Shown: positions 34,916 to 63,835 of the stretch, piece after piece
Layout of the letters: each line of letters starts with the position of its first letter
Numbering within the stretch: the stretch's first letter is position 1
IMG/VR virus record: IMGVR_UViG_3300009503_000022
Coordinates: 46,356-110,355 of that record
Origin: a virus
DNA length: 64,000 nt
Reading direction: 5' to 3' (one strand)
Program-made: the position numbers and the translations under genes
Notes under the pieces: generated by a model
Seen by the model: the letters and a program-made list of their open reading frames with translations, nothing else
Database searches by the model: none
What the model was told of the DNA's origin: nothing

Positions 34916-35683
34916 TTATATAGCAGATAATTCTTGTCTCCAGTTTGTTGTTATCGTATTATCATCCCATTTAACTCTATAAAAATTATTATTATGATCT
35001 ATTCTTATTATAGTACCTATTCTATTTGTTCCTATTCTCCTCACTTTTTCCCCTAATTCAAAATTACTAACTTTATTATCTTGATATGTATATTGTCCAA
35101 TCCATTCATTCGGTTGAAACTCATCTTCAAATCTAATTTTAGCTTGCACTTCTTTAAGAATATCTTCAATTTTATTTCTCTCATCTATAGCATTTACTGC
35201 TGCCTTAATTAATTCCCTTTCATCTCTAAAACTATTATCATCTTCCTCTTCTTGTATAAATAAATTATTAGCAGTATCTCTAACTTTTACCAAAGTACTT
35301 ATATGAGTAATATAATTTTCAGATTGTCCTATATCTACCCAAACTTTATTTCCAACTATTTTACGAACTATTCCTGGTTCCATATCAGGCATTGAAGAAA
35401 ATACAACTTTATCTCCAACCTTTAATCTAGCACTTTTAAGCATAGGAACCCATTGTTTTGATTTCGGATCATATACCCATTCGCTTCCTTCAGGAGGAGG
35501 AGTCGTCGGTTTTGCAGGCACTTGCGATTCTATCTCTATACCTTTATCTCGTATAACTTTATTAACCAATTCAATAGCATCTTCTTCACCATATCCATAT
35601 TCATCTACAAGTTTTCTTTTTATAGCATTAACCCCTATCCCTCGATTATACCATTTTATTATATTAGATTCTAATCCTGGCAT
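34916..35683 (-). CDS. modular protein with SH3/KOW-like barrels
   Basis: LKVGDKVVF...; FELGEKVR...GTIIR...YRVKWDD. Confidence 0.6.
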   Translation of the reverse strand: MPGLESNIIKWYNRGIGVNAIKRKLVDEYGYGEEDAIELVNKVIRDKGIEIESQVPAKPTTPPPEGSEWVYDPKSKQWVPMLKSARLKVGDKVVFSSMPDMEPGIVRKIVGNKVWVDIGQSENYITHISTLVKVRDTANNLFIQEEEDDNSFRDERELIKAAVNAIDERNKIEDILKEVQAKIRFEDEFQPNEWIGQYTYQDNKVSNFELGEKVRRIGTNRIGTIIRIDHNNNFYRVKWDDNTITTNWRQELSAI

Positions 35684-35697
35684 AATTAAATCCTCCT

Positions 35698-38600
35698 TTA
35701 ATAATTTAATATTTTTCTTAAATAAGAAGCAGCTTCAAATATCTCTTTTAAATCTAATTCTTCTATAGTTTTATCCTTTTCCTCTAAATATGCATTTAAT
35801 TCCATTTCTATTATCTTCTTTGAATTATCATTTATTTTACTTGCTTTAACTTCATTAAAATATTCTTTTAATAAATTAAAAGCCGCCTTTAATTTAGGAT
35901 TTTTAATAAATAACCAAGAAAATGGAGCAATAAAATCTATAATCATCTTTAATGTCTCTTTAATTCCTGCTTCTTTCTCAATTCCATAATCTAATCTAGT
36001 CTTCAATTGAAATTTATCTTCTTCTTTACTTCTAATCATTAACCATTTTCTATCTTCCATCGGTATTAAAGTAAATTCTCCCTTTACTTTATCAGTATTT
36101 AATCTAAATTTTCTTTTCTTATCTGACCATTCTAATATCTCTGCATCTCCAATTGCATAAGTTTCAACTATTCCTGCTCCATATTCACCTTTAGGTATTT
36201 CACCTTCAAAATAAATATAATCTACTGGATGATCCTCTGTTTCTATAAATAAAACCTTTTGTCCAGGTTCTGGTATTTTCCTCGTAACCCCTGATTTTAA
36301 AACACCATCTTTAAATATTCTCCAATCAAAATGTTTACCTGCCTTTTTTGCATAATGCAATTGAATCCCTGACTTGCCTTCTTCTCTAATTTTAGGTTTT
36401 GGTTCAGGAGTAATATCAAAATCTCTTTTTTTCTTATATTCTTCCAATCTATCATCTTCTTGAGCTTTTTTTAAAAAATATTCGTCTTCAACTTCTTGTA
36501 AATATGTAAACTTATTAAATATCTTAACACTTGATTCCAATTTCCAAGAAGCAGTTTTCAAAAATTTAGTAGTCTTATTTTGAATATCTTTTATTATTGC
36601 AGTAACACGAGGAGGTGAAATACCTAAAATCTCTGCAATCTCAACTTGACTATATCCTGATACTAACAAATTAAATACCTTCTTACCTACATCTGTAAGA
36701 AGATTTAATATTTTATCAAATAAATCATTTACTATTACTTTTTCCTCAGGTGAATCATACTTAGATTCAATAATATTCTTTATTTTAATAGGAACATCTT
36801 TATCTTCATATATAACATCTTCTAAACTATATGCTATTGTATTTACTATTTCTTTTTGAAGATATAAATCTCTTATTTCATCTTTTACTCTACCATCTAA
36901 TTGGTTATATAACCACGTTGAAAATTTTCCTTTTTCTCTATCATAAGTATCTATTGAATGTAAAATAATTTCATCAATAATAGAAGAAGCATCATAAAAC
37001 CCTGCTTTTCCTAATTTATTTTCAAATGGATACGCTAACCTTTTTAATTCAGGATAAATTTCGTTAAATATTTTTTCATCTTTCGTTTCTTTATATCTAA
37101 TCACTTTTTCATCTAAATCTTCTATTGATGATTTTTTATACAACTTTTTAAGTACTTTATCTATTTTAGCATCTTCCTTCTCAAAATCAAATAATTTATC
37201 TTCATCTATTGGTAAACATACTAATCCTGTTTTTCCTGATAAACTATACGGAACTCTTAATCCACCTGCTCTATGTAACGTACTAGTATCTAGCCTACAA
37301 GTATTTTCCTTTTTCGTAACTCCAGTAGTCAATCTTTTATCATTTTTATTTTCTATATATTCTTCTAAAGCTAATTTAATTGCTGTTCTAGCTTCATCTA
37401 CATCTATTTCTTTTTTTAATATACCATAAACGTGAAATCCTTTTGAACCAGAAAATACTATCTTAGTATCAACTACATTATCCATTGTTTCTATTAAATC
37501 TTTAACCTCAAAAACTATATCCTTTAAATCATCCCAAGAAAATCCTTCTTTTGGATCTAAATCAACATATAAAAATGGAGTAGTATCCTTAAGAGAAAAA
37601 TGCCATTCAACATTTCTACCATTATTTAATTTATCAAAATCTTTAATATTTATCGGTTTTCCCTCTATCTTTCTTTGAACTATAGTATCATCAACTTTCT
37701 TAAATAAAGTCACATCAAGATCATACTTTAAATAAGTTTCTATAATATCATCTTTAACAGTATCATAATACAAAAAAATCTCACCTTCATTAAGTCCTTC
37801 TTTATAAAATTCATTTGGTTCTACTATTATAGTTTCTGGATGCTTTGGTTTATAAGCATAAATTAAACTACTTTCTATTTTCATTGATTTACCTTCGTGA
37901 TAACAAGCATTTTGTTCAAATTCATTAGTATAAATTGTCCATCTATTTCTACCTTTATTTTTGGATTCATAAAGTGCTTTATCTGCTTTAGTAAATGAAT
38001 CATCTATATTAGATTCTAACGGAGCAGCTCCTAAACTTATAGTCACTGGTATTTCAGTTTGTTTAGTTTCTTCTTCAACTGTATTTCTTATCAATTCCAA
38101 TAATTCTTTTAAATCCTCTTCATCATCTAATTCAATAAATATTACAAATTCTTCTCCGCCCCATCTAACTATATTTTCTATATCAAGACTTTTAATTAAA
38201 TCGGCAACTGTCTTTAATACCTCGTCGCCTTTATCGTGACCATATTCATCATTAATTTGCTTAAAATGATCTATATCAGTTAAAATTATATAATTATTTT
38301 CTTCTAATAATCTTTCTTCATTATCCTCTAACCAATGCCTTGAATACAACCCAGTTAAAGCATCTGTATATAATCTTTTTTTCAATTCCTCGACTTCTTT
38401 TTGTAAATCTTTATTTTCATCTATTTCTGATTCTATCTTTCTTATTTCAGTCGGATGAACTTCAGATATTATAGATCCATCTTCTAAAGGTTTATCCCAC
38501 TTGACTACATAATCAACATCATAAATTGTTCCTCCTCGCTCTTCAGGAGCTATATCTATTATTGTTCCTGTATTATCAAAATTAATTGCCTCTATTTTAG

Positions 38601-41600
38601 TTCCCTTTTCATAAACTCCTTTTCGCGATTGAAAAGCTTTCAAACGAATCACTTTTTCATTTTTATATATATTCTCATCAAATTTTTTCTTTCTTAAATT
38701 TTCATCTAATGTTTCTACTACATTATAATATTTATCTATAATCTTATATATTTTCTCTGGATTTCTTAAAAATACAAATTCATCTCTTATTTTTAATTGA
38801 TCAAAAGTAGTTATTTCCCCTTCTTCTATTCCATGTCTTTTAAATAAACTTGAATAACATTGTTTTCTAACTAAATTTACATATTCGCTTTCTTTCTTTA
38901 AAAATTCATCTAATTCAGGATATTGCTCTTTAACATCTTTAATTTTCTTTTCTAAAACATCTAAATATTCTATCATTTTATTCCAATAAGGTTCATAAGA
39001 ATCGTCCCATATAACTATCTTATTTTTTCCTGTATTCTTACCTAATACAAGAGATTTGTGAGCATCTGTAGGAATTTTTCCAATCCCTACAGTTGCTGTA
39101 TGTCCTGTATTTTTTAAATAAATATCTATAAATTGCTGTCCTAATTTTTTGGCTTCTTCTATCGTAATAGGAATACTTATAAATATATTATCTCCACCTT
39201 CAAATATTACCTCTCCATTATACTTAGTAATTATTTCTATTATTTCTTTATTAGCATTTTTTATTTGATTAGATATATTTTTTGCTACTTCTGTATCTTT
39301 ATCATAAATGGCTTCTTCTACTCTATCTCCAATATCATCACCATCAATGGCTATATAAACAAGATTACCTTTTTCTGATCTCTGTTTACCAATTTGAGCT
39401 TCTTTATGAAAACACTCTTTTCCTTCTGAATACAATACTATTCTATCTGGTGAAATAGGTCCAACAACCACAGCAGTTCCTGCTATTCTTAAAGTATCTT
39501 CACCGGTTATATCTTTATAATAAACACCCCATTCCGGATCGTGTCTACTTTTTAGTCCTCTAGGAATTTGCTCATCATGTTTCCAATATAAAAATTTTCC
39601 TTCTACATCATCAACATAAGCACCTAAATCGACTAACATTGCATAATCTGGTAATAAATCTAAACCTGAAACATCTACTTTATAAATATATTTACCAGGA
39701 AACTTTCCTGGTTCTTTAGAAACAAAAACAGATTCTTCTGGTAACCAACCATAATCAAAAAATTGTTCCCCAGCTTCTGTTAATCCTTTTGTTTTTCTAC
39801 CCACTAAACCCTCTTTCAAAATTATTTCTGGAGGAACATTTGTACTATGATATAAATATTTAATAGCTTTCTTTTCTAATTCTTCAATCTTTTTCATTAC
39901 TCCTTTATGAATAAGTCTAGGTTTCATATCCTTTATTTTTTGTAAAACTTCTTTTTTTAACTCATATAACATCTTAATTTCATCACCAGATGGAGAATAT
40001 TTAATTGACCAATTTATTTCTCTTACGAGTTCCCATAAATTCCAAATTATTAAATCAATAGTTTCACCTGTTGCTTTCATATTTAAAATATCTTTAAAAT
40101 CTTCTTCTAATTCACTTATAGGTTTACCAATTTGAGCTTCTTTATGAAAATATTCTCCTAACTTCATTTGTTCTCTTAATTCCCATATTTTAAATAATTC
40201 TGATTCTTGAGCTAAACTTGGACTCCATTGCATTCTTAATCCATCAAAATGAATCCAATCAACTATTTTATCTATAACATAAAATTTTTCAAAACCTTCT
40301 TTTGAATAAGCTTCTTCACCTTGTTTAATCAATTCTTCTATTTTCTTTATGTTTCTTTTTATAGGTTCTACTTCAACTCTTGTTGTGCCTCCAGTTTTTA
40401 ATTTATTTAAATGATAAATTAATTCTTCTAAAATTTTATCTAATTTATCATCATCATAAATACCCTTAGATGCATCAATATAAACTTTTCTTAAATCAGT
40501 AAGAAATATTGCTTCTTTGTTTAAAAAAGCTCTTAATTGTTCTAACTTATTATTATTTCCATATTGAAAAATATTTGCAATTCTAGACATTAACCAACCC
40601 TTTTCCTCAAATCCAGGTATTTGCTCAAGCCTTAAATCTTCTGGAATTACTTTCTTATCCTCTCTATATCTTTCTATTCTTGGTTTTCTAATTATCCCTG
40701 TCATTTTATCTTCTATTTGTATCCATTTATTATCTTCAAACTTATATGCAGGTCCTTTTTTTATATTTACTTCTTCACCTTGTACTTCTACAATACAAGG
40801 TTCTTTAAAAGGATCAACCCAAATTCTACCATCTTCATCTTCAAATACTTTATTTCTTTCTGCCCATTCTATAAATTCTAATCGTTCCTTATCAGTAAAC
40901 CCTGTCCCAACCTTACCATTAAGCCTAAATATCCCTTCTTTATCTCTAAATGAAGTTAATATTGCGCCCATCTGTTCAGGATGCTTTTTACTTCTTTCTA
41001 CTGCAACTACAACTAAATCAATAGATAAAATCGGTTTTACCTTAACTATTTTATTATCATAATAAATTATAAGTCCTTCATAACCATATTTTTGAGGTTG
41101 TACAACCTTATCCCATAATTCGTCTACATCATTTAAATCAGCATTTTCAAAATATTCTGCTGGCTTTACATACTTTCCTTTGCTAAACAAATTTCTTAAT
41201 CCACTAATTCTATATGATAAATCTTTATCTTGCCAATCAATTCCATCTATACTTATAATATCAAATACTATTATCCTTATTCTTTCTTCATCTTCTTTAG
41301 TTTTCGGAGCCTTTAATAAACTCTGAGATTTTAAATAACTTAATGGAATACCATCTTCACTAACTCCATAAATTTCTCCAACTCCTATAAATTCTTTTAA
41401 CGGTTTATTTTTTAATAATTCTGTAATTTCATCCGTAACAGGTAAATCATAACGAATTGTACCTGCTCTAGTAACTGTTATTGTTCTACCATCTTTATAT
41501 TCTATTCCAACTATTTCTCCATCTAATTTTACCGATATTGTAAATTTCTTACCTTTTAATTTTTCTCTCAATTCATCTATAGTATAAAACTTCATCGACA

Positions 41601-41676
41601 TTCTTTCTTTATAATCACTTACTATAGATGAAATTGGATTTTCTTTATCTATTTCTTTTTTAAATGCTAATATCAT
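35698..41676 (-). CDS. 1992-aa polyvalent protein: ATP-dependent DNA ligase, ART-like, mCpol, SH3-like, GGDEF, LigD primase-polymerase, sigma-70, LigD phosphoesterase
   Basis: KLDG/FDII/EGLII/VKVKP/VGTGFT/REDK (~40600-41600); YLYHST..ILKEGL (~39430-39865); IDGDDIG/GGDN (~39005-39365); DALTGL/DIDHFK/GGEEF (~37930-38375); DLDP/SGSKGFH (~37150-37860); FSTW/EIAEILGIS (~36560-37125); Q.H..HFDWR/EDHP..Y/GEYGAG (~36030-36450). Confidence 0.9.
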   Translation of the reverse strand: MILAFKKEIDKENPISSIVSDYKERMSMKFYTIDELREKLKGKKFTISVKLDGEIVGIEYKDGRTITVTRAGTIRYDLPVTDEITELLKNKPLKEFIGVGEIYGVSEDGIPLSYLKSQSLLKAPKTKEDEERIRIIVFDIISIDGIDWQDKDLSYRISGLRNLFSKGKYVKPAEYFENADLNDVDELWDKVVQPQKYGYEGLIIYYDNKIVKVKPILSIDLVVVAVERSKKHPEQMGAILTSFRDKEGIFRLNGKVGTGFTDKERLEFIEWAERNKVFEDEDGRIWVDPFKEPCIVEVQGEEVNIKKGPAYKFEDNKWIQIEDKMTGIIRKPRIERYREDKKVIPEDLRLEQIPGFEEKGWLMSRIANIFQYGNNNKLEQLRAFLNKEAIFLTDLRKVYIDASKGIYDDDKLDKILEELIYHLNKLKTGGTTRVEVEPIKRNIKKIEELIKQGEEAYSKEGFEKFYVIDKIVDWIHFDGLRMQWSPSLAQESELFKIWELREQMKLGEYFHKEAQIGKPISELEEDFKDILNMKATGETIDLIIWNLWELVREINWSIKYSPSGDEIKMLYELKKEVLQKIKDMKPRLIHKGVMKKIEELEKKAIKYLYHSTNVPPEIILKEGLVGRKTKGLTEAGEQFFDYGWLPEESVFVSKEPGKFPGKYIYKVDVSGLDLLPDYAMLVDLGAYVDDVEGKFLYWKHDEQIPRGLKSRHDPEWGVYYKDITGEDTLRIAGTAVVVGPISPDRIVLYSEGKECFHKEAQIGKQRSEKGNLVYIAIDGDDIGDRVEEAIYDKDTEVAKNISNQIKNANKEIIEIITKYNGEVIFEGGDNIFISIPITIEEAKKLGQQFIDIYLKNTGHTATVGIGKIPTDAHKSLVLGKNTGKNKIVIWDDSYEPYWNKMIEYLDVLEKKIKDVKEQYPELDEFLKKESEYVNLVRKQCYSSLFKRHGIEEGEITTFDQLKIRDEFVFLRNPEKIYKIIDKYYNVVETLDENLRKKKFDENIYKNEKVIRLKAFQSRKGVYEKGTKIEAINFDNTGTIIDIAPEERGGTIYDVDYVVKWDKPLEDGSIISEVHPTEIRKIESEIDENKDLQKEVEELKKRLYTDALTGLYSRHWLEDNEERLLEENNYIILTDIDHFKQINDEYGHDKGDEVLKTVADLIKSLDIENIVRWGGEEFVIFIELDDEEDLKELLELIRNTVEEETKQTEIPVTISLGAAPLESNIDDSFTKADKALYESKNKGRNRWTIYTNEFEQNACYHEGKSMKIESSLIYAYKPKHPETIIVEPNEFYKEGLNEGEIFLYYDTVKDDIIETYLKYDLDVTLFKKVDDTIVQRKIEGKPINIKDFDKLNNGRNVEWHFSLKDTTPFLYVDLDPKEGFSWDDLKDIVFEVKDLIETMDNVVDTKIVFSGSKGFHVYGILKKEIDVDEARTAIKLALEEYIENKNDKRLTTGVTKKENTCRLDTSTLHRAGGLRVPYSLSGKTGLVCLPIDEDKLFDFEKEDAKIDKVLKKLYKKSSIEDLDEKVIRYKETKDEKIFNEIYPELKRLAYPFENKLGKAGFYDASSIIDEIILHSIDTYDREKGKFSTWLYNQLDGRVKDEIRDLYLQKEIVNTIAYSLEDVIYEDKDVPIKIKNIIESKYDSPEEKVIVNDLFDKILNLLTDVGKKVFNLLVSGYSQVEIAEILGISPPRVTAIIKDIQNKTTKFLKTASWKLESSVKIFNKFTYLQEVEDEYFLKKAQEDDRLEEYKKKRDFDITPEPKPKIREEGKSGIQLHYAKKAGKHFDWRIFKDGVLKSGVTRKIPEPGQKVLFIETEDHPVDYIYFEGEIPKGEYGAGIVETYAIGDAEILEWSDKKRKFRLNTDKVKGEFTLIPMEDRKWLMIRSKEEDKFQLKTRLDYGIEKEAGIKETLKMIIDFIAPFSWLFIKNPKLKAAFNLLKEYFNEVKASKINDNSKKIIEMELNAYLEEKDKTIEELDLKEIFEAASYLRKILNY
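39384..40150. repeat. 29-bp perfect direct repeat (39384-39412 and 40122-40150) encoding FHKEAQIGK
   Basis: gtttaccaatttgagcttctttatgaaaa at both positions, 738 bp apart, in frame. Confidence 0.9.
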
Positions 41677-42056: not shown

Positions 42057-44117
42057 TTATATCTCCTCTTTAATCAATTCTTTAGCTGCATTAACAAATA
42101 AATTAAAATCATCAACTTTAACTTTTTTACTTATTCTAGAAAATATCTCATCCATATATCCTTCAATAATACTATCATAATTTATATCTATTTTTTTATT
42201 ATCTTCAGTCGCTATTTTCTTTAATAAATTAGCATCTTCAATAACAGCATTAACAATATCGTCTAATTGAATATTTGCTTTAATAAATTCTTTAATAGAC
42301 GATTCTTTTTCAATAGTATCTTTAATCTCTTTTTTTATTTTCTTTTGAGTTTTATCATCAAATTCTTTTTTATACTTATCCTTTGCTTTTAAAAATTTTT
42401 CTATTTCTTTATCTAACTCTTTTTTCTTTTCTTCAGTTACTTCTTCATCTACCTTAATTATTTCAGTTGGATGAACTTCAGTAATTGTTTCTCCTGCTAC
42501 TGGAGTATCCCATTTTATAATATAATCTATATCTCCAGGTTTTTCATCATTTTTATAAATTACATATCCCATAAGCCCATTCGTCTGTAATTGAACTCTA
42601 TCATATACTTCAAATTCGTCTTCTTCTATAGCTGATGTTAATAATAATCTATATTTCATTACATTTTCATCTTTATACTCGTTCATTTTAAATTTAAACT
42701 CAGTATTATCATCTAAAGATGCAGTCACTATTCCTAATCTTGGATCAAATCGTCTATAAGTATAAATATCAGGACTATTTTCAAATTGAAATTTATCACC
42801 TAATTTTAATTCACTAAACTTAACATATCCTTGTTTTTGATATATTTTATCGTAATCTTGAATAGATTCTTTTTTCTTCATCTTTTTATCTTTTTTTATT
42901 TCTTTATCATAAGATTTTTGTAATTTTTTTTCAGATTTAGATTTATCTATTTTCCTTTCCATATTCATATTAACACCCTCGGATAATTCTGGTAATTCTC
43001 TAAATTTAACAGTAGAATTATCAGAAACATTTAAAGTATCTATATTAATAGTTGTATCTGATTTTCTATTTAATGAAGATCTTAAACTTGCTATTTTCCT
43101 CAATCTATTAGGATATTTCTCTAATAAATCTTTAATATTGCCTCTTAAACCAGTTACATCCCCTTCTATATTTGTAACATTTCCTTCAATATAAGAAACA
43201 TCTCCTTTTATGTTAGATACATCTCCTTTTAAATAAGAAACATTTCCCCTTATATTAGATACATCTCCTACAATATTTGAAGCATCTCCATATATATTTG
43301 AAGCATCTCCATATATATTTGAAGCATCTCCATATATTTTAGATTTATCCCCTGTTACATTTTCATCATTAATCAATCTACTTTTTTGTGATTTTATTCT
43401 TAATGAAGACTTTTTCGTTCTTTTAAATTTTTCAAATAAATCTGGATTTTCACTAATAAACTTATTTACACCATCCATAAACCATACATGCCACCCAGAA
43501 CCTTCTGTTTCTAATTTCTTTTTTATACTTTCCCAACCTTCTTCAAAATAATATTCTGCTTCTTTTTGAGCTTTTTTATCACCTTTATAAGCAGGATCTA
43601 TAATTAAACTATCCATAAGATCAATTGCATATTCTTGTATTGGAGTTTCAAGTTTAATAACATCCGATTTTCTTAATTGCATATTTCCTCCTAAATTTGC
43701 AAAAGATTTCTCTAATACATCTTGAGGATTTTCTATAACCATTTTATCTCGAGGAACTTTTTGCTCTTCAGGAAATACAAAAAGATCATCTTTTAAAATA
43801 GTATCATTTTGAGATTTCCTTTCTAATAATCTTTTTACAAAATCTCTCCATTCTTCCTTATTTTCTTCTACCATTCCATCAAATATTTCTTTTGCTTTAT
43901 CTTCTGTAACATCATAAATATTCATAAAATACTTTACTATTTCTGAATCTATATCATCGGCAATTTTTTCTAAAGTAAATTCGCTTCCTGTATCTAATTC
44001 AGGATTAGATGATATATCAGGATTAGTTTTAAAATAATCCAACTCGTGAAATTTTCCTGAATCATGTGGATATTTAATCTCATCAAATCCACCTTGAGCT
44101 TTACGTCTCAAATTCAT
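42057..44117 (-). CDS. modular polyprotein-like protein (heptad solenoid, SH3-like modules)
   Basis: Eleven xxxGD[AV]S-type heptads; EVHPTEI module; multiple L-x-[KR]-x-[AS] linkers. Confidence 0.7.
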   Translation of the reverse strand: MNLRRKAQGGFDEIKYPHDSGKFHELDYFKTNPDISSNPELDTGSEFTLEKIADDIDSEIVKYFMNIYDVTEDKAKEIFDGMVEENKEEWRDFVKRLLERKSQNDTILKDDLFVFPEEQKVPRDKMVIENPQDVLEKSFANLGGNMQLRKSDVIKLETPIQEYAIDLMDSLIIDPAYKGDKKAQKEAEYYFEEGWESIKKKLETEGSGWHVWFMDGVNKFISENPDLFEKFKRTKKSSLRIKSQKSRLINDENVTGDKSKIYGDASNIYGDASNIYGDASNIVGDVSNIRGNVSYLKGDVSNIKGDVSYIEGNVTNIEGDVTGLRGNIKDLLEKYPNRLRKIASLRSSLNRKSDTTINIDTLNVSDNSTVKFRELPELSEGVNMNMERKIDKSKSEKKLQKSYDKEIKKDKKMKKKESIQDYDKIYQKQGYVKFSELKLGDKFQFENSPDIYTYRRFDPRLGIVTASLDDNTEFKFKMNEYKDENVMKYRLLLTSAIEEDEFEVYDRVQLQTNGLMGYVIYKNDEKPGDIDYIIKWDTPVAGETITEVHPTEIIKVDEEVTEEKKKELDKEIEKFLKAKDKYKKEFDDKTQKKIKKEIKDTIEKESSIKEFIKANIQLDDIVNAVIEDANLLKKIATEDNKKIDINYDSIIEGYMDEIFSRISKKVKVDDFNLFVNAAKELIKEEI

Positions 44118-53522: not shown

Positions 53523-53717
53523 TCATTCCTCCATACTCTCTATTTCCTCTTGAAGTTTATATAAATACGTATTTAAATTACGTTCTGCTATATTCAATTC
53601 GTTTTCTGATATATCAAAATCCTTTCCTAATGATTTTATATATTCAATATCATTTTTTATTCTAAAAACAACAGAACAAATATTATCAAATATATCTTGA
53701 GCTTCTATTCTCTTCAT
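53523..53717 (-). CDS. small helical protein
   Basis: Tightly packed ORF; MKRIEA start. Confidence 0.55.
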   Translation of the reverse strand: MKRIEAQDIFDNICSVVFRIKNDIEYIKSLGKDFDISENELNIAERNLNTYLYKLQEEIESMEE

Positions 53718-54052
53718 TTTTGCCTAATAGACGGATTAAAATATGGAACTATCCCGTCTTCGTGAAATTGTCCTTGTTTTTCTTCATAAAACTCCAATTT
53801 TAAACTTTTTAACTTTTTTATTGCTTCATCAATCTCATCTTGAGATTCATCTAAAACTCCTAACTCTGTTATAAATTCATAACCCCAAACATCAAAAGGA
53901 TCTCCTAAAGAATCTTTTAATTTATTATGCTCCTTCATTAAATCTTGTAATTGAATAATCTTATTTTTTAAATTAAATAACGAATTAATAACTTTTTCTC
54001 TACTTTCTTCAAAATTTCTTATATCTATAGCTTTTCTTTTTAACCAATCCAT
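53714..54052 (-). CDS. helical protein (start MDWLKRKA)
   Basis: ATG 54052 after GGAGAAGG avoids overlap with portal. Confidence 0.6.
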   Translation of the reverse strand: MDWLKRKAIDIRNFEESREKVINSLFNLKNKIIQLQDLMKEHNKLKDSLGDPFDVWGYEFITELGVLDESQDEIDEAIKKLKSLKLEFYEEKQGQFHEDGIVPYFNPSIRQK

Positions 54053-54065
54053 ACCTTCTCCTTTT

Positions 54066-55847
54066 CTAAATTGCTGGCGTCTCACCTTCTCCCTTTGCAG
54101 GAGGAGGCACTGGTTCTTTCTCCTCTTTTGGTACTTCTGGTTTTGGCGGCAACGGTGATAACGGCTGATGAATCATCTTCTTTTCAGGTTCAAAAATAAC
54201 AGGTTTTTCTACTATACTTTCGCCTTTTTCTTTAATTGTCCACTTTTCTACTTTAGTACCATCTAATATTTGATTTGCTATTTTTTCGTCTCCTGCTTTA
54301 GAATCTCTTACCTTTCTCCATAATGGATCTAATTCTGTAGATTGCTCTTCTTTAAACGCTTGTTTAATTGCATCTAAATCCCAATCAAATAACTCTGCTA
54401 TATATTTAAACGGAATTTCTCCATTTTCTCTTAATCTACCTACAAATTCCATCAATTCTCTATTATTCATCAAATTCATCCTATGCCAAAATATCTTAGG
54501 TATATCATAACCACTTCTTGTTGTTCTAACCCTATGATCAATATCTGCTTGCTTTGGAAGTTTAAAATCTCTAGCTATACAAAGTAAAAATAATACTTTC
54601 TCTGTAAGCTTATTTGCTAACGACTCTCTAAACGTCATATACTTATTCATCAAAACTCTAACACTAATCGCTTGACTTGCATACGGTCCTAATTCACCAT
54701 GAACTACAGCATCATTAACAAATAAACCCACCATATACCTTTTTGCAACAAATTCAAAATGAGGAATCAAATCCATTATTTTATCTCTCCCAACAACATA
54801 ATCAACTTCTACAAAAGGATGTGTTATAATATTATAATCTGGGTCGTTACTAGCTTGTATTAAATGTTGCTCAAATTCTTTATATTTAGAAGGAGGAGGA
54901 ATCCATCCTTTCTCCTTTGATCCTATTTTAAATATCTTAATAGGAAATGCGTGTCTATTTACAAATGTAGTTAATAACATTCTTAACTGATCTTCATACA
55001 ATAAATCTTTTATTACACTTAATACTGGACTTATCCCTCTCGGAGTATATTTATTAGGCCTCCTTGCTAAATGAATCAATCTCTTATTATCAAACATATA
55101 ATTTTTACCAGATTTCATTTTTTCTACAAATTCTGGCATTTCCTGTTCCATTAATTCAATTATTTTTTTATCTATCGGATCACTAGACCTCAACTGCTTT
55201 TTTATATTTTCGTTTGGTTTTATAAAATACACAAAACTTGAAACATACGTAGGTCTAACTTCAACATCTTCTGGAGGATATTGATTAAATGATTCAAATT
55301 CTTTATCATAATCATTCCAATTACCATATAAAAATCCTTCCCCTAATAACCAATGATCTTTTGATATCATAACTAATGTTTCTAACAATTCTTTCCTTTC
55401 CTTAAATTCATTAAAATATTTTGTAATTGCTGGATCAACACATTTAAAATCAAAATCAGATAAAGGAAACTCTGAATGAAGATCTATAATATTTCTAATA
55501 TAAGGATTATATTGATAATAATGTCTTAATCTTCTATTCAATTCACGAATATTATCTTTCGGAAATAACATCAAAACTGGATCAAATAAAGGATCCATAT
55601 ACAACAAAGGAACTCTATCAACCGAAGGAGCAATCGTAAAACTCATATCGGCTGCTTCTCTAGTAAATCCTTCCTTCATTGCTGATTGAATATATTTTTC
55701 TTTTTCAGTTTCTAATTTTGCTTTAGATAATTCAACCTTATCTTTATACGCCTCTCCATCAAAAGAATGCAATGTTGCCTTTCTTCCAATAGTCTTAAGT
55801 TGATCCAATCTCTTTACCATTTCCTTATCTAATTTATCTTTAGACAT
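54066..55847 (-). CDS. portal protein
   Basis: YY..NP.IRNIIDLHSEFP...W.LGE.F...H.AR.....PRG.S.....K.L.Y...P.KI.KIG; upstream of protease. Confidence 0.8.
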   Translation of the reverse strand: MSKDKLDKEMVKRLDQLKTIGRKATLHSFDGEAYKDKVELSKAKLETEKEKYIQSAMKEGFTREAADMSFTIAPSVDRVPLLYMDPLFDPVLMLFPKDNIRELNRRLRHYYQYNPYIRNIIDLHSEFPLSDFDFKCVDPAITKYFNEFKERKELLETLVMISKDHWLLGEGFLYGNWNDYDKEFESFNQYPPEDVEVRPTYVSSFVYFIKPNENIKKQLRSSDPIDKKIIELMEQEMPEFVEKMKSGKNYMFDNKRLIHLARRPNKYTPRGISPVLSVIKDLLYEDQLRMLLTTFVNRHAFPIKIFKIGSKEKGWIPPPSKYKEFEQHLIQASNDPDYNIITHPFVEVDYVVGRDKIMDLIPHFEFVAKRYMVGLFVNDAVVHGELGPYASQAISVRVLMNKYMTFRESLANKLTEKVLFLLCIARDFKLPKQADIDHRVRTTRSGYDIPKIFWHRMNLMNNRELMEFVGRLRENGEIPFKYIAELFDWDLDAIKQAFKEEQSTELDPLWRKVRDSKAGDEKIANQILDGTKVEKWTIKEKGESIVEKPVIFEPEKKMIHQPLSPLPPKPEVPKEEKEPVPPPAKGEGETPAI

Positions 55848-55874: not shown

Positions 55875-57257
55875 TTATATCTCTTTACCATACTGATATC
55901 TTTCTTTATAAAAATATTTAGATAAACCTTCCTCTGTTAATCCATAAAGATTATTATCTTCACCTTTTATTGAATCAGGAGTTACAATTTCATTCCCTAT
56001 AATAGAAAATATAAGAAGTCCTAATTTTTCATTTAATTTCTCAGGTAATGTATTATCCTTAATTTTTAACAATACTGATACTAATGCATTTGCATCAAAA
56101 AATCTTTCTCTTGTTTGTTCATCTACATCAATAGTTTTTTCTATTTCTTTAATAACTTCAATAGAAGTATATTTAAAACTTTGAACACTTAATTCAAAAC
56201 TTTGTAAAGAATCATTTTTCTCTCTTATATATCCTAAAATTTTATCTACTATATCAGCGGGTATTGTTTCTTTTCTCATTTCTTTTACATTTTTCTCAAA
56301 ATATTCACTTGGTGTAACTTCTTTAATTTCTTCTTCAAATGGCTTTTTTATTTCTTTTTCTTCTTCTTTCTCGACTTTTTCTTGCATTATTCTCTCAATA
56401 TCTTCTTCTCCTTCTGGCGTCATCTTTTCAACATCAGGACCTGCTTTTATTTCAATATAAGCTTTAACTAATTCATTATATTCTTTATCATTTATATCAC
56501 CATTTAACTTAGCCTGTAATATTAAATTTTCTATCTGTTCTCCATTTAAATCTTCATAATGATTATAAATATAATTATCTAAATTTATAAATTTTTCATT
56601 ATCACTTGCAGTCAAATGAATTTCGTGCTTTGGTTCACTCAAATTTTGTTTTGGAAATTCTTTTAACTTATCTATTGTCACTGGCCTATCCCAATAATTT
56701 GCTCCTGTAGTTATTTTATCTAACTTTTCTCTTGCTTCTTCTAATTTATTAAAATAAAAACATTCCTCTCTATTTATATCACCTTTCTGTCCAAATATAG
56801 AATATCCTAAATTATACGGCATTATAAAATAATAATCAAATTCCTTATCTTTTGAAACTCCCCAACCATAATTAATCCCAGGAATAGTTGCAGGAACATC
56901 TAATACCTTATCTACATTCATCCAATCTTCAACAGAAACTCCTGTCAACCTTTTAAAAACCTCTCTAATAGAAACTAAAGGATAACCTAAAGATAAAAGC
57001 CAATCTTCAATGTATTTATAACCATATTTCCCTTCTTCAATAAGTTGACGCATATTTTCTTCTAATTCAATAGTCTCATTTTTTAATCCTGATCCACTAT
57101 ATTCTATATGATTTAAAGTCCTTGAAATATCCTTAACTCCTTGAATTGCGGACTTCCTTTTTATTTTTTGTATTTCTGGATCAGCATCTTCTACTTCATT
57201 TTCTCCAGCATCAATAAAAAGATCACTAAATTGGTTATCTTTCATTTCAAATTTCAT
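55875..57257 (-). CDS. acidic hypothetical protein, probable head component
   Basis: Adjacent to portal; IKRKSA and IEIKA linker-like motifs. Confidence 0.55.
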   Translation of the reverse strand: MKFEMKDNQFSDLFIDAGENEVEDADPEIQKIKRKSAIQGVKDISRTLNHIEYSGSGLKNETIELEENMRQLIEEGKYGYKYIEDWLLSLGYPLVSIREVFKRLTGVSVEDWMNVDKVLDVPATIPGINYGWGVSKDKEFDYYFIMPYNLGYSIFGQKGDINREECFYFNKLEEAREKLDKITTGANYWDRPVTIDKLKEFPKQNLSEPKHEIHLTASDNEKFINLDNYIYNHYEDLNGEQIENLILQAKLNGDINDKEYNELVKAYIEIKAGPDVEKMTPEGEEDIERIMQEKVEKEEEKEIKKPFEEEIKEVTPSEYFEKNVKEMRKETIPADIVDKILGYIREKNDSLQSFELSVQSFKYTSIEVIKEIEKTIDVDEQTRERFFDANALVSVLLKIKDNTLPEKLNEKLGLLIFSIIGNEIVTPDSIKGEDNNLYGLTEEGLSKYFYKERYQYGKEI

Positions 57258-57796: not shown

Positions 57797-60145
57797 CTAC
57801 TTAAATAAATTTAATTCATTATCTATATTCATCAATTCATCTTTAGATACAATATATTTACGATTAAATCTTGAATCTCTTACTAAATAATTTCCATCTT
57901 CTTTTTTCTCTAAAATCTTTACTTTAAGATTACCTTGATCTGTAATTAACATAGCTTCAGAATTAATTTTTAAATCTTGCGTAATATCAATCCCAACAGA
58001 TTCAGGCTTAGTAGTTGGATAAGGTCCAAATACTTGAGATGGAACCATATCCCTATTTTCAAATAATACAGAAACATCATCTGGTTTATTATATGGTTTA
58101 TCTGACTCGTACATAGTTCCATATACCTCTTTCATAATATCATCTACAATCTTTTCATCTAATTCTGGCCTTTCTTTTTTCAAATCCTCTCTTTTCCAAC
58201 CTTTTTCTTTTACTATTTTTATTAATTCTTTACGTTCGTTTGGTCCAATATATTCTTCTTGTCTTTTCAAAGACAAATCTCTAAATCTTCCAGTTCCTCT
58301 TGGAGGTAAATCTTCTACTGTTTCAACTTTATCTTCTGGAAATCTCATTTTATGCCTAATTAACCTTTCCTCATCTGACAAAGGTCTTCCACCTCTACCA
58401 GGCCATATTCCTCTTCCGATACCTCTGCCTTTTCCCCAAGGCCCTGTCCCATCAGGAATTCCTGGTATTATACCTGATTCTTTATTTAATGAAGCTTCTT
58501 TAATTATAGAATCTGGATCTCTTCTTATTTTCTCCCAATCTATCATATCAATTGGTACATATTCACCTGCATCTATATCCCATATCGCTAATTCATGAGA
58601 ATAATATTCTGGCCAATACATTGCTTCTTTACCATTTTTTAAAGTAACTATATCAACACCATCTAATTCTAACGTTTCTATATCAAAAACCTTAGTCCCT
58701 GCTTCTTCACTAGTTTTTTCCCAATCAATCTCATCTAGATCTACAATTCTATTTGTTCCTATTTCTGTAAAAATATGACGACCTACAAAGATATCATATT
58801 TAGCTCCTTTTTCATATAATCCATAATTTCCATTTTTTAAAGGGACTTTCCAACCTGTTTGTAGATCTTCAATTGATTCTATTTTTTGAGATTGTTTTTG
58901 TAATGAAGCTATAGTTCTAAAATCTAAATCCCAATTTCCTTTACCATACTTTTCATCCATATATTTTCTAATTAAATCTAAATATTCTTCTTGAATTTCA
59001 TAATATATATTATGAGACAATAAAATCATAACTTTACCATCTTTTTTTGTAACACTAATAACTTTAACATCAGGTTCGAATCTATCAATAAATTCTTGTA
59101 TTATTGCTTTATCTTTTATTAATTCTTCTTCTCGTGATTCTTTTTGTAATGAAGATTTCTTTTTAGCTTTCTCAATTGCTTCATCAGCATACTCTTCCAT
59201 AAGCTCATCATCTAATTTGTATAAAAATTCTTCCCACATTTCATTAGTAAATTCTGGATATTTTTTAAATACATATTCCTTTATAATAGGAACTGTTTCA
59301 TAAATAACATCTAGATAAAACGCACCTTCAGGATCAATTGTATCTACAGGATCAACTTTAGTTATTTTCTTAAAATTAATAACCACATCACTAACAGCTT
59401 CATCTATCATTACCCATTCATCTCTACTCAATTGAGATTTTTTGTTTAACGAAGATTCCCTTTCTGTTTCAAAAAGTTGAGAATAATAATTCTTCCACCA
59501 ATCTAAAGATTCCAAATCAGATTCATATCGTGTAAGCATATTAATTACTTCATTACGAATTTCTTTTAAATCGTGTCTAATTTTTTCTACATATCTAACT
59601 ATTTTATTAGCCATTCTTCTAGCTTCATCTAAATCTCTTATATTCTTTTTAAGATCTTCAATAAATCTTCGTTTTTCCTCATCATCAACTTCACTATCCT
59701 TAATTTCATCAGCATATTCTAAAAATTCTTCTACTTCATATAAAAATCCTTGTATAGAATCTAAATCACCAATTATATATCCAAAATCTGGTTTTATTAC
59801 AAACCAACCACCCATTCTTCCTTCTTGATACCAATCTTCTATCCAATCATATTTTATAAGTAAATACTCACCCAAACTTTCAACTCTTCTTGAAGCTTCA
59901 TATATTACTGGATCTTCATCATAATATTCTATTTTATTTAAAATTTCTTCAGGAATTTCAAGACCATATACTTTTATATCAAATTCAAAAGAATTTTCTA
60001 CATGAGCACCAATTCTATCTGCAATACCATCTCCTATATAATAAATTAATTCGTCTTCGCTTATATCTTTTAAATCTCCTAATATACTTTCTATCTCTTT
60101 TTTTCCTTTTTCTAACTTTTCTATTAAAAATTTTAAATCATCCAT
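57797..60145 (-). CDS. modular polyprotein-like protein with four SL-x-K-x-S linkers
   Basis: SSLNKKSQ, SSLQKESR, ASLQKQSQ, ASLNKESG; duplicated LKNG...IDWEK module; PDGTGP Gly/Arg motif. Confidence 0.7.
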   Translation of the reverse strand: MDDLKFLIEKLEKGKKEIESILGDLKDISEDELIYYIGDGIADRIGAHVENSFEFDIKVYGLEIPEEILNKIEYYDEDPVIYEASRRVESLGEYLLIKYDWIEDWYQEGRMGGWFVIKPDFGYIIGDLDSIQGFLYEVEEFLEYADEIKDSEVDDEEKRRFIEDLKKNIRDLDEARRMANKIVRYVEKIRHDLKEIRNEVINMLTRYESDLESLDWWKNYYSQLFETERESSLNKKSQLSRDEWVMIDEAVSDVVINFKKITKVDPVDTIDPEGAFYLDVIYETVPIIKEYVFKKYPEFTNEMWEEFLYKLDDELMEEYADEAIEKAKKKSSLQKESREEELIKDKAIIQEFIDRFEPDVKVISVTKKDGKVMILLSHNIYYEIQEEYLDLIRKYMDEKYGKGNWDLDFRTIASLQKQSQKIESIEDLQTGWKVPLKNGNYGLYEKGAKYDIFVGRHIFTEIGTNRIVDLDEIDWEKTSEEAGTKVFDIETLELDGVDIVTLKNGKEAMYWPEYYSHELAIWDIDAGEYVPIDMIDWEKIRRDPDSIIKEASLNKESGIIPGIPDGTGPWGKGRGIGRGIWPGRGGRPLSDEERLIRHKMRFPEDKVETVEDLPPRGTGRFRDLSLKRQEEYIGPNERKELIKIVKEKGWKREDLKKERPELDEKIVDDIMKEVYGTMYESDKPYNKPDDVSVLFENRDMVPSQVFGPYPTTKPESVGIDITQDLKINSEAMLITDQGNLKVKILEKKEDGNYLVRDSRFNRKYIVSKDELMNIDNELNLFK

Positions 60146-60236: not shown

Positions 60237-60767
60237 TTATCTAATAGGCATAATTTGAAATGGAGCATCTCCTATAATATCACCAATTGTATCTTTTGGA
60301 GAAACATCAATCTCTTGCTCTTCATCTATTCCTAAATAATCAGCATCTTTCTTACTAATATGTAAATAAATTTTATTAACATTACCTCTATAATCAGTTA
60401 TTATATCCTCTACAACTGCTTCAACAGATTCTTCACCATGCCAATATAATACTTTGCTTCCTATAACAATACCTCTATCAAATAAATCATCTTCTGTTAT
60501 TCCAGCTTTCTTATGCAAAAATGATTGTTTTTGTGAAGATTTTCTACTTCCTTTCCATTCATAATAATATTCTCTTATTAAATCAGAACCATCAGATGCT
60601 AATTCACTATCTTCTAACCATTCTTTAAATTCTTCAAATTCTTTTTTACTTATTTCCTCGCCTACAACTTCTGATAAAGATCTTTGATCAAACCAGTTTA
60701 TCACAATTGTATTATCAGTATTTATCATAACTGCTTTTCTATTTAATAAAGATTTTGACCAAGACAT
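60237..60767 (-). CDS. two-module protein with linker motifs
   Basis: MSWSKSLLNRKA leader; SFLHKKA internal linker; SH3-like second module. Confidence 0.65.
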   Translation of the reverse strand: MSWSKSLLNRKAVMINTDNTIVINWFDQRSLSEVVGEEISKKEFEEFKEWLEDSELASDGSDLIREYYYEWKGSRKSSQKQSFLHKKAGITEDDLFDRGIVIGSKVLYWHGEESVEAVVEDIITDYRGNVNKIYLHISKKDADYLGIDEEQEIDVSPKDTIGDIIGDAPFQIMPIR

Positions 60768-60782
60768 ATTTTACCTCCAGTT

Positions 60783-61208
60783 TTAAATTTCTTCCCAATC
60801 TACTTCTTCATACGCTTCTTTTATTAACTTATCTAATATATTTTTTGGAAAATCTTTTTCGTCAACTATTTCATCATCTATATAATATTCCAATACCTCA
60901 ACATCTTCTACAGAAAACTCAGCAGGATCTACCCAACTAGCAGGAATATCATATCCTGATCCTTTGGCAACTATTTTATATATCTTCCCTGTTTTCGGAT
61001 CTTCATAATCAAATTCTTTTATTCCTACCCATCCTTTTAATGCTGATTTCATGTGTTTAAACATTTCGATTTGACGCAATCTTTCCTCTGCCTTTTTTCT
61101 CGATGGATAACAACCAAAACTTCTACCTTTTTCTGAATAAACACAATATTCTCCATCTTTTTTCCTAATATATGATTTTTTATCTAATGAAGATTTTAGC
61201 CAATTCAT
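60783..61208 (-). CDS. two-module protein with linker leader
   Basis: MNWLKSSLDKKS leader; YCV.SEKG...GCY.S...A..RL.QIE.FK domain. Confidence 0.65.
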   Translation of the reverse strand: MNWLKSSLDKKSYIRKKDGEYCVYSEKGRSFGCYPSRKKAEERLRQIEMFKHMKSALKGWVGIKEFDYEDPKTGKIYKIVAKGSGYDIPASWVDPAEFSVEDVEVLEYYIDDEIVDEKDFPKNILDKLIKEAYEEVDWEEI

Positions 61209-61396
61209 TTTTCTTCCTTTAGAATACCTTCTATATATTCTCTAAACATTTTATATTCCTTTTCACTATACGATCTTAAATGAGGAAAAAGACTTAATAA
61301 AGTTTTATCCAAATCTTTTCCCTGATTTAAATATTCCTCTTTTATACTATCTAATAAAGATTTATGATTATTATTGTTTGATTGTCGTTTTTTCAT
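61205..61396 (-). CDS. small hypothetical protein
   Basis: ATGA overlaps at both ends. Confidence 0.55.
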   Translation of the reverse strand: MKKRQSNNNNHKSLLDSIKEEYLNQGKDLDKTLLSLFPHLRSYSEKEYKMFREYIEGILKEEK

Positions 61397-62745
61397 TTGA
61401 TCCTTATTTTTGTTCTATAATCTATATCGGATTTCTTTAATATTTTTATATCCTCTTCTGATACTTGAACTACTCTACCATTTTCCAATTCAACAACTAT
61501 TTTACCCAAATCGTCGGTAATATCTTTAATAATTCCTCTATCTCCATTTTTATAAATAATATTATTATGCACTATTTTATCTTTCAACATTCTAACCTCA
61601 GCACCAAGATATTCTCTCCTCTTTTTCGCAGACGTTATTCCATTATTTAATTCCTTTTTTGCTATTTTTTTATTAATTAAAGATGATTTCTGATATATAT
61701 CATAAAAATCACTTGGTAAATCAGATTCATCACAATATATATCTACTTCATCATCTTCTTTTGTAACTTCATCTGCTACTTTTTCTAAAAACATATCATC
61801 ATTTAAATGTGCTTCTTTTAATTTAAACCATTTTTCATCTTCTTCAGGATCTTGTTCTGACCAACCAGAAAATATCTGATCTATATTCTCATTCCATTGT
61901 CCAGTAAGAGGTTGTCTATAATATATATCAACATCTGTCCATTCTTCATCATAAACTATAATCTTAGTTTCAATTTTCCTATCAAAACCTATTAAATTAG
62001 CATAATATGTTTGAGGAAATTCTTGACCTTCAGGATATTCTATAGCCTTTTTTTGCAAAAATGAATTTTTAATTCCTAAATTTTTTAAATTTCCATAAAC
62101 TTTAATTTCTACAAATTCAGCTCCTGGATATTTTTCTAATAATTTTGGTTTTAAATCAAAAACTCTATCAGATATTTTATCTAATTCTCTTTGCGTCAAT
62201 GCTTTAGTTGCTGATTCTATTCCAACATAAACTACATTATCAATTAATCTAACAAAAGCATTATCCAACAAAGGTTCATTTAATCCTAACACTTCATTTA
62301 CAGTAGGATTTCTTTTACTTACTTTATTAAATAAATTTATCAATTCTTTACCAAAAACCTCAATTGCCTTTTCTTTTCCTATTCTCTCTATTAAATTACT
62401 AAATTCATCTTTCGTATATAATAATGCCGATATATTCTTTGCTTCCATATTTCTTTCACACGCTTTACATAACTTACCTATCTTTTCTCTAGCTATTCTT
62501 ATAGTACCTTGTTTTATAAACCTATCTAACTCTTTTAATTGATCAATAATCAATTCGATTTCTTTATCTGTTAACCCCAATTCCTCTCCTTTTTCTCTTA
62601 CTTTATCATAATCAAAATCATAATAACTCTTTTGAGTTTTAGGATCAACTTTTACAAATTCATCACAAGCCCATTCAAAAAGATTTGCATATTTATCTTT
62701 TTTCATAAACTTACTCTCCTTTTTTAAACGTCCTTCCTTCATCAT
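61393..62745 (-). CDS. modular protein with linker motifs and C-terminal SH3-like barrel
   Basis: LKKES, SFLQKKA, SSLINKKIA. Confidence 0.65.
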   Translation of the reverse strand: MMKEGRLKKESKFMKKDKYANLFEWACDEFVKVDPKTQKSYYDFDYDKVREKGEELGLTDKEIELIIDQLKELDRFIKQGTIRIAREKIGKLCKACERNMEAKNISALLYTKDEFSNLIERIGKEKAIEVFGKELINLFNKVSKRNPTVNEVLGLNEPLLDNAFVRLIDNVVYVGIESATKALTQRELDKISDRVFDLKPKLLEKYPGAEFVEIKVYGNLKNLGIKNSFLQKKAIEYPEGQEFPQTYYANLIGFDRKIETKIIVYDEEWTDVDIYYRQPLTGQWNENIDQIFSGWSEQDPEEDEKWFKLKEAHLNDDMFLEKVADEVTKEDDEVDIYCDESDLPSDFYDIYQKSSLINKKIAKKELNNGITSAKKRREYLGAEVRMLKDKIVHNNIIYKNGDRGIIKDITDDLGKIVVELENGRVVQVSEEDIKILKKSDIDYRTKIRIK

Positions 62746-63046: not shown

Positions 63047-63214
63047 ATTAATTGAAACTTTATCTTTTGTTTCCCTAGCAATTTGTATATTACCACATTC
63101 GTTACATTTATATATCTTCAAAATATAAGCAGTTTCTTTTATTACATCTACAGAAGTATTATGTGAAATCAATTTCAAATTATTACTTTCACATTCTTCA
63201 CAATATATTTGCAT
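63041..63214 (-). CDS. Zn-ribbon protein (57 aa, not in track)
   Basis: MQIYCEECESNNL...YKCNECGNIQ...; follows a GGAG RBS. Confidence 0.65.
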   Translation of the reverse strand: MQIYCEECESNNLKLISHNTSVDVIKETAYILKIYKCNECGNIQIARETKDKVSINE

Positions 63215-63217
63215 TTT

Positions 63218-63835
63218 TCAAAATCTCCTTTCTAACCTATCAGGATATTTTTTTAATAAATCTTCGATATCACCTCTTAAACCAGTCACATCACCTTCTA
63301 CACCTGTAACATCACCTCGTATACCAGAAACCTCTCCAACTATATTAGATACATCTCCTTTTAAATGAGATACATCACCAAACGTATCAGTTACATCACC
63401 TTTTATGTTAGATACATCACCTTCTATACTAGATACATCTCCTTCTATATTAGATACATCACCTCTTATATTAGATACATCGCCCCTTATATTAGATACA
63501 TATCCTTCTATATCTGATGCATCTCCCTTTATATTTGAAGCATCTCCATATATATTTGATACATCACCTCTTAAATTAGATACATCACCTTCTATATATA
63601 GATCAAACGGAGAACCTTCTATATAAGCTACTTCTCCTCTTATATTAGATACATCACCTTCTAAATAAGAAACATCTCCCCTTATTTTAGATACATCTCC
63701 ACTTATATTTGATGCATCTCCTTTTATATTCGAAGCATCTCCCCATATATTAGACTTATCTCCTGTTACATTTTCATCATTAATCAATCTCCTTCTTTGC
63801 GATTTTATTCTTAATGAAGATTTTAACCAATACAT
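63218..63835 (-). CDS. heptad-repeat (xxxGD[VA]S) beta-solenoid protein
   Basis: About 24 heptads; MYWLKSSLRIKSQ leader. Confidence 0.75.
   Translation of the reverse strand: MYWLKSSLRIKSQRRRLINDENVTGDKSNIWGDASNIKGDASNISGDVSKIRGDVSYLEGDVSNIRGEVAYIEGSPFDLYIEGDVSNLRGDVSNIYGDASNIKGDASDIEGYVSNIRGDVSNIRGDVSNIEGDVSSIEGDVSNIKGDVTDTFGDVSHLKGDVSNIVGEVSGIRGDVTGVEGDVTGLRGDIEDLLKKYPDRLERRF

Follow-up and report, generated by a model that had tools for sequence, protein, structure and literature searches.

What does a short peptide element do that recurs in many head-region proteins of a large phage? We asked this of a 64-kb stretch of viral DNA, here called the window, which is the last 64 kb of the 110,355-bp contig IMGVR_UViG_3300009503_000022 (26% G+C) from an uncultured relative of Bacillus phage G. 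The original prediction had listed the element as variants of (S)-L-x-[KR]-x-[AS] and had taken it for a linker that the prohead protease cuts; every listed string was present, all in minus-strand open reading frames (ORFs), the strand that holds 132 of the 133 ORFs of the contig. We defined the head region as the 30 ORFs at 34916-63835 and compared it with the other 103 contig ORFs and with about 70 loci around portal homologues from public viral contigs (IMG/VR). The earlier processing interpretation was supported by these sequence comparisons, and we think it probable that the head-maturation serine protease of the phage recognises and cuts the element in its general form, PHI-x-[KR]-x-[AS] with PHI being Leu, Phe or Trp, and that the element serves to tag and process head proteins much as the T4 capsid-targeting sequence (CTS) does. 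The scissile bond most likely follows the Ala or Ser, giving a small P1, a basic P3 and a hydrophobic P5 residue; we placed it there because the preceding residue is highly variable and homologous domains start right after the Ala or Ser.

Distribution of the motif and N-terminal tags

The strict motif, [SA][SFL]L-x-[KRI]-[KEQ]-[SA], was found 13 times in the head region when 0.03 occurrences were expected from per-protein shuffles, and once in the other contig ORFs when 0.18 were expected. As these shuffles preserve composition, the recurrence in head-region proteins is not accounted for by their Lys-rich background. The general form gave 49 sites in the head region against 16.3 expected (z = 7.8), 22 in the tail region against 18.1 (z 0.9), and 29 in the remainder of the contig against 27.8 (z 0.2). 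The full motif had gone unnoticed in tail genes; the general form is not enriched there, and one strict match is present. No head-region excess was found for control patterns (charge-swapped, reversed, or with Thr, Asn or Gln at P1), and neither the T4 pattern [LI]xE nor the phiKZ pattern [SAG]xE showed head-specific enrichment; a conserved Glu was absent from the sites.

The sequence S-S-L-x-K-K-S resolves into a tandem of K-x-S followed by S-L-x-K-x-S, and the motif is often doubled in this way. A position-weight matrix of exact SSLxKKS matched only this phage and its closest relative (L001, portal 60% identical) and, weakly, two others (L035 and L065); because it matched so few relatives, the Ser-rich tandem form is lineage-specific and the general rule alone family-wide. 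One paralogous pair was found among the motif-bearing proteins, amino acids (aa) 236-378 of the 686-aa ORF resembling aa 5-158 of the 205-aa ORF (49% identity), and no similarity was detected among the remainder. The two copies of SSLRIKSQ, at first counted separately, lie in these paralogues and are therefore one event.

Many head-region ORFs begin with Met, the motif, and little more. ORFs of this pattern number 7 of the 133 in the contig, all within the head region, and apart from the 686-aa and 205-aa paralogues the seven are mutually unalike in sequence. In close relatives the tag occurred at 51 of 514 ORF starts versus 39 of 2530 internal Met residues (p = 3.5e-18), and in distant relatives at 36 of 612 starts versus 61 of 3285 internal Met residues. 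The tags of the window proteins are given in Table 1; those of relatives include MWTKTA, MSWTRKA, MSRWLRIA (in seven ORFs of L013), MKWTIKKKA and MPFYKTA. Small ORFs just past the portal gene in relatives begin MNWLNKKS, MSWLIKKS (L001) and MEWLRKA (L002), and relatives of the 68-aa zinc-ribbon protein begin MSFKKVGS, MAFSRRGT, MAFHKTG and similar. The string WLKRKAI, listed earlier with the linkers, is present as stated and sits at the true N-terminus of the 112-aa protein: the longest-ORF GTG starts of 53714-54085 and 44770-45249 are probably wrong, and the ATG codons at 54052 and 45216 give tagged N-termini.

From Y13 onward the 141-aa protein is 59% identical to a 53-aa homologue in L038, which carries that phage's own leader, MNNWTKILS, and the N-terminal tag of the 205-aa protein is the internal linker of its 686-aa paralogue. 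A shared promoter or leader DNA as the origin of the tags was considered and rejected, as the DNA upstream of them differs. Since there is one paralogous pair only, the upstream DNA is unconserved and the Ser codons vary in L013, selection appears to act on the peptide.

In phage G (L006, NC_023719 3349-44131) at least nine early-numbered products, among the first 64, start with M-K-R-L-I-K-K-[AS] or similar (gp10, 13, 17, 20, 38, 48, 53, 56 and 57); by their N-termini these are candidates for capsid-loaded proteins. The main texts of the phage G virion proteomics do not mention the tagged gene products. In the window, an unlisted 58-aa ORF on the minus strand (41880-42056) begins MYWLRQEKLRIKKEE; compared by eye, its body looks like the small domain present in the 141-aa ORF and in L038 17418-17579.

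The protease and the sites in conserved head proteins

The ORF at 49814-52075, whose gene lies between those for the portal and the capsid protein, had been taken for the protease, and this assignment was borne out. It matches PHROG 18299/2774, and His102 and Ser153 (within S-M-G-C) are invariant across 28 protease homologues. Searches of PDB sequences with the protease, and of Pfam with the protease, portal and cargo proteins, gave no match. An AlphaFold2 (AF2) model of aa 1-290 (pLDDT 84.7) was used in a Foldseek search of the PDB, which returned T4 gp21 (5JBL; probability 1.0, TM-target 0.61) as the top match, followed by the proteases of Kaposi's sarcoma-associated herpesvirus, human cytomegalovirus and Epstein-Barr virus; as modelled, the protease has the T4 gp21 and herpesvirus assemblin fold. 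Right after the protease Ser is a cluster of Cys residues (aa ~153-179; window 51540-51620), of which C163, C166 and C177 are nearly or fully invariant; it may be a metal site within the protease domain.

In eight relatives (L009-L012, L016/17, L040, L008) the C-terminal part of the same ORF, aa 465-750, has a gene of its own downstream of the protease. We therefore regard the window ORF as joining protease and scaffold in one protein, as herpesvirus UL26 does. The position of this module and its coiled-coil-like sequence suggest that it is a scaffold. Its site is kept in relatives as L-K-R-x-A.

From aa 63 onward the capsid protein aligns with phage G gp27 at 32% identity, and the phage G protein starts about 5 residues past the predicted cut in the window protein. 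As phage G lacks it, the 37-aa segment ahead of the cut behaves like a dispensable propeptide. Among relatives of 26-57% G+C the site is kept, as PHI-x-[KR]-x-A/[SGA], about 25 aa ahead of the conserved core, with variants that include FKREA/G, MTKSA/S, FTKKA/S, FARSA/G, FVKKA/A, LARKA/S, LVKKA/S and FSKIA/S, a slash marking the predicted cut here and below. FSRTAS, at first described as a looser form, proved to be among the best conserved of all sites, occurring in every relative for which the capsid N-terminus was recovered.

For the portal, the site first put forward, IGRKAT, is present as IGRKA/T at aa 20-24, but it is weaker and poorly conserved in homologues, and we rejected it as the conserved portal site. 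The conserved one is FTREA/A, whose equivalent, F-x-[KR]-x-A/G/S (here A, G or S at P1), is found a short way ahead of the portal core in about 20 of the 28 homologues compared, while 23 of them have one site or more ahead of the core. The 460-aa portal-adjacent protein has homologues in all close relatives, and in its family the conserved core follows a [KR]-x-[ASG] column, which in L016, L017 and L040 is an N-terminal tag. In relatives, the capsid protein, the portal, the 460-aa protein and the scaffold-like module thus all carry the site just before the core while the surrounding sequence is variable. Prohead proteases are known to cut at such places, namely at the N-termini of capsid and portal proteins and in the scaffold.

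Two further sets of observations belong beside these proteins. In the Mycobacterium phage Myrna (L078), gp97 (8980-12615), annotated as a tape measure, matches the window protease in its N-terminal part (31% identity, E 6e-20), and its gene lies just upstream of the capsid gene; judged by this similarity, gp97 is probably a protease fusion. The Myrna capsid protein, gp99, begins ...GLGRFA/KSS/. The loci of L002, L003 and L005, identical over 21 kb, have the capsid gene split by a 237-aa ORF in an intron-like arrangement, and their portal (1103 aa) and protease (1160 aa) are enlarged by long insertions, the three genes lying at 19472-20954, 9983-13294 and 15436-18918. Intein or homing-endonuclease domains of Pfam occur in several portal homologues.

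Putative multi-module precursors

Sites were said to fall at module boundaries, and they do so where the boundaries are set independently by stand-alone homologues. In a full HMMER scan, stand-alone proteins matched single inter-site fragments of the 782-aa protein: 1-237, 238-337, 338-419, 420-557 and 558-~630. In these homologues a short leader, with Ser, Ala or Gly as its last residue, comes directly before the conserved part, and in a polyprotein elsewhere VSSLIKKA/ precedes the same module as in the 782-aa protein. In a relative held out from the comparison (L001), six SSL[NDQ]K[QK]S motifs occur in an 806-aa protein that is barely alignable with the 782-aa protein. In the AF2 model of the latter, three of its four strict sites are found where a helix ends or in a loop of low confidence; being only partly confident (mean pLDDT 59.8), the model supports the role of the sites as linkers weakly.

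In the 686-aa protein the heptad-repeat module, aa 249-336, has sites on both sides and matches repeat proteins, 101-219 aa long, that stand alone elsewhere (P0188-P0192); a further stretch, aa 420-557, is similar to aa 939-1082 of the 1992-aa ORF. Runs of the 7-residue repeat GD[AV]SNIxG lie at 43100-43380 and 63350-63750 on the minus strand; the PHROG label of this family is 'minor head protein / tail needle'.

The 1992-aa protein combines, by Pfam, a DNA ligase, modules of unknown kind, mCpol, GGDEF, a LigD PrimPol, sigma-70 regions 2 and 4, and a LigD phosphoesterase. Of its nine matches to the general motif, eight are outside the Pfam domains, 1548 alone lying inside one, and three are at domain ends: 760 before mCpol, 1516 after PrimPol and 1709 after sigma. 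Sites 604 and 760 exactly bracket the part, aa 608-755, that is matched by a stand-alone protein of 144 aa (P0193), and in L040 the ligase (aa 10-370 of the 1992-aa ORF) and the PrimPol (N-terminus MWVKES) are encoded as separate genes. As is characteristic of viral polyproteins, the 782-aa fragments and aa 605-760 of the 1992-aa protein each match stand-alone proteins end to end. The 1992-aa protein has two copies of the linker FHKEA/QIG, one at aa 510-517 and the other at aa 756-763 (window 40135-40149 and 39397-39411).

By gene content the phage is a myovirus, as tail genes were recognised by PHROGs matches, and its portal homologues occur on many uncultured contigs of up to 300 kb.

Table 1. 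Features of the window, with predicted sites (slash, predicted cut; P1, residue before it; nt, nucleotide positions in the window)
Feature	Coordinates	Strand	Sites and remarks
Prohead protease (aa 1-~280), Lys/Glu-rich linker and scaffold-like module (aa ~465-750)	49814..52075	minus	N-terminal tag MFKRIGS/; internal site SLRRKA/Y (P1 = A549, nt 50429-50443)
Major capsid protein, 326 aa	48275..49255	minus	predicted 37-aa propeptide ending GFSRTA/S (nt 49145-49159)
Portal protein	54066..55847	minus	PHROG 16240; conserved site GFTREA/A (aa 61-65, nt 55653-55667)
460-aa portal-adjacent protein	55875..57257	minus	KRKSA/I (aa 33-37, nt 57147-57161)
782-aa multi-module cargo precursor	57797..60145	minus	P1 = S237, S337, S419, S557 (nt 59435-59449, 59135-59149, 58889-58903, 58475-58489)
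686-aa multi-module precursor	42057..44117	minus	MNLRRKA/Q, LLERKS/Q (102), KKSSLRIKS/Q (243), RLRKIA/S (343), SSLNRKS/D (353)
450-aa protein	61393..62745	minus	GRLKKES/K (P1 = 11), SFLQKKA/I (P1 = 234)
1992-aa enzyme polyprotein	35698..41676	minus	P1 = 389, 514, 604, 760, 930, 1516, 1709, 1738
205-aa protein	63218..63835	minus	leader MYWLKSS/LRIKS/Q, then GD[AV]SNIxG heptad repeats; PHROG 19577, minor head protein
176-aa protein	60237..60767	minus	N-terminal tag MSWSKSLLNRKA/V; internal SFLHKKA/G (P1 = A88)
141-aa protein	60783..61208	minus	leader MNWLKSS/LDKKS/Y
112-aa protein	53714..54052	minus	tag MDWLKRKA/I; GGAG ribosome-binding site ahead of ATG 54052
68-aa zinc-ribbon protein	52542..52748	minus	just upstream of protease; tag MFKRKGS/P
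148-aa protein	44770..45216	minus	tag MKNLYRIA/D; ribosome-binding site GGGGG ahead of ATG 45216
Tail sheath	31054-32607		PHROGs
Baseplate wedge	20238-21698		PHROGs
Tail fibre	16331-18286		PHROGs

Alternative readings and comparison with known systems

In the mechanism that we propose, the protease-scaffold fusion would assemble within the procapsid, and the protease would trim about 37 aa off the capsid protein, about 65 aa off the portal and about 37 aa off the 460-aa protein, and would also cleave its own scaffold part. Fast-evolving proteins encoded around the portal start with Met and the motif (M-x-W-L-K-x-S and similar), a tag that would act as the T4 CTS does, delivering the protein to the protease-scaffold core and then being removed. 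The 782-, 686-, 450- and 1992-aa proteins would be strings of motif-joined modules that are cut free inside the head; probably among the freed modules are the DNA ligase, the mCpol cyclase, the GGDEF-PrimPol piece, the sigma factor and the phosphoesterase, and the freed enzymes could pass into the host along with the DNA.

Several observations weigh against this proposal. The Foldseek E-values for the protease model are weak (~7e-3), and H179, considered as a third catalytic residue, is Cys in some distant homologues. The general motif is short, and part of its 49 matches is surely due to chance. SSLRIKS has Ile rather than Lys or Arg at P3, and in some tags of relatives (MSRWLIA, MSRWLQA, MNNWTKILS) the spacing from the hydrophobic residue to the Ala or Ser varies. 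In the 782-aa protein, site S337 falls inside a long helix that AF2 predicts with confidence, and the sites at 479 and 758 are unconserved in homologues. Finally, the conservation of linker codons described below hints at shared descent or a role at the level of DNA.

The best of the alternatives, although an unlikely one, is that the motif is a docking tag only, bound by the scaffold, an exosite of the protease or the capsid interior, so that proteins are loaded as in encapsulins and are not cut. The N-terminal tags hold almost nothing except the motif, repeated copies in one protein could give avidity, and one site is predicted to be helical, all of which would suit docking. Against this, the same site occurs in the capsid protein, portal and scaffold, where other phages remove propeptides; the phage G capsid protein has no segment upstream of the site; and the junctions in the precursors match the ends of stand-alone homologues. 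Encapsulin tags, moreover, are C-terminal.

We give little credence to a second alternative, in which module shuffling mainly accounts for the S-S-L linker, left behind by it or used for it, through shared descent or DNA homology for recombination, with the peptide motif as a by-product. It draws on the codons: all 26 Ser codons of the motif in the window are TCN, while AGY makes up 31% of Ser codons across head-region genes, and TCA encodes eight of the ten head-region Ser residues that precede Leu, versus 15% of S-L pairs elsewhere. The string TCT-TCA-TTA recurs in the window and in L001 (linkers at window 59135-59449, 43059-43418, 61173-61208 and 63800-63835 and at L001 5863-8283), and the tag of one gene, as noted above, is the internal linker of its paralogue. 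The peptide rule, however, holds over 26-57% G+C with different codons, and in the unshuffled capsid, portal and scaffold proteins, the DNA upstream of the tags is unconserved, and L013 uses both TCT and AGT. Shuffling and cleavage are compatible readings and do not exclude one another; the linkers may share descent or aid module shuffling.

Smaller still is the chance that another enzyme, a host protease or a second phage protease, cuts the motif. In Staphylococcal phage 80alpha the host Prp protease removes the leaders of the capsid and scaffold proteins, a case that the short N-terminal leaders of the window proteins resemble. The motif, in contrast, tracks the protease family over many hosts and G+C contents, the protease and its fused scaffold-like module themselves bear the motif, and the head module yielded no second protease. 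An effect of chance in the Lys- and Ser-rich coding sequence of an AT-rich genome can be dismissed, as the composition-keeping shuffles refute it, equally Lys-rich tail and replication genes lack the excess, and the control patterns were flat.

Cleavage by the phage's own protease, which we favour, would supply a testable cutting rule for a large, mostly uncultured clade that includes phage G, to our knowledge the only cultivated megaphage, and possibly cluster C mycobacteriophages such as Myrna. Given a sequence and nothing more, the rule could predict the ends of the mature capsid and portal proteins and which proteins are loaded into the capsid. The precursors, above all the 1992-aa enzyme string, suggest a route for protein delivery into the host, and a polyprotein strategy in a tailed phage would bear on counter-defence and on phage capsids engineered as protein carriers. 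That the capsid is loaded with a polyprotein enzyme kit (LigD-type ligase, PrimPol and phosphoesterase, the two nucleotide-cyclase-type domains mCpol and GGDEF, and a sigma factor), which the head protease cuts at Lys-x-Ala/Ser linkers and whose pieces are injected with the DNA, is a tentative extension, possible in our judgement although we incline against it. If it were true, then ahead of all phage gene expression the incoming genome could be repaired or circularised, the host polymerase could be re-programmed to transcribe it, and it could be protected against cyclic-nucleotide defences; the conserved linker DNA might also drive the shuffling of cargo modules.

A literature search for a published Lys-x-Ala rule, or for T5 or mycobacteriophage cut sites, gave nothing useful, which is no proof of absence. 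The known systems offer precedents for the separate parts of the proposal, in the T4 CTS and the multi-site propeptides of SPN3US (PMC5694885, PMC10052503). Compared with the encapsulin cargo-loading peptide, the window motifs differ in being N-terminal or internal and in occurring in the shell protein itself. The likeness to T4 gp21 and its CTS substrates (IPI-III, Alt) is closer. Both have an assemblin-like protease fold, that of the window protein coming from a model, and short leaders (7-12 aa) on unrelated proteins that end in the motif marking the capsid protein; the purpose, head loading and trimming, is likely the same (PMC5694885). T4 gp21, however, cuts after Glu (L/I-x-E), whereas the window sites would have Ala or Ser at P1, Lys or Arg at P3 and Leu, Phe or Trp at P5; in addition, the window protease is fused to a scaffold-like module, and many of its presumed substrates are multi-module precursors rather than single proteins.

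Herpesvirus UL26, with its R and M sites, is built like the window ORF, with the protease at the N-terminus, a scaffold (scaffold-like in the window) at the C-terminus and a self-site, predicted for the window, in between or beyond the protease. The herpesvirus fusion is cut after Ala, as in the pseudorabies sites YLQA-T and VQA-S (PMC4498786), a small P1 like that predicted for the window sites. The herpesvirus sites differ in a hydrophobic P3 without a basic residue. We know of no cargo proteins or N-terminal tags for herpesvirus assemblin. If the proposed specificity is right, a small P1, as in the herpesvirus enzymes, exists in phages too, and proteases of the gp21 fold are not limited to the glutamate-specific cleavage of T4, phiKZ and SPN3US.

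The phiKZ gp175 and SPN3US gp245 systems are alike in having many motif-bearing head proteins with several sites per precursor (PMC5694885, PMC10052503). Those systems also process their own protease as well as portal and capsid proteins, for all of which the window has matching sites, known from sequence. Cleavage follows Glu in all the published examples from T4, phiKZ, 201phi2-1 and SPN3US (PMC5694885), and the phiKZ and SPN3US enzymes, recognising S/A/G-x-E or A-x-E, mostly remove long N-terminal propeptides, whereas the window sites part modules that elsewhere are independent genes.

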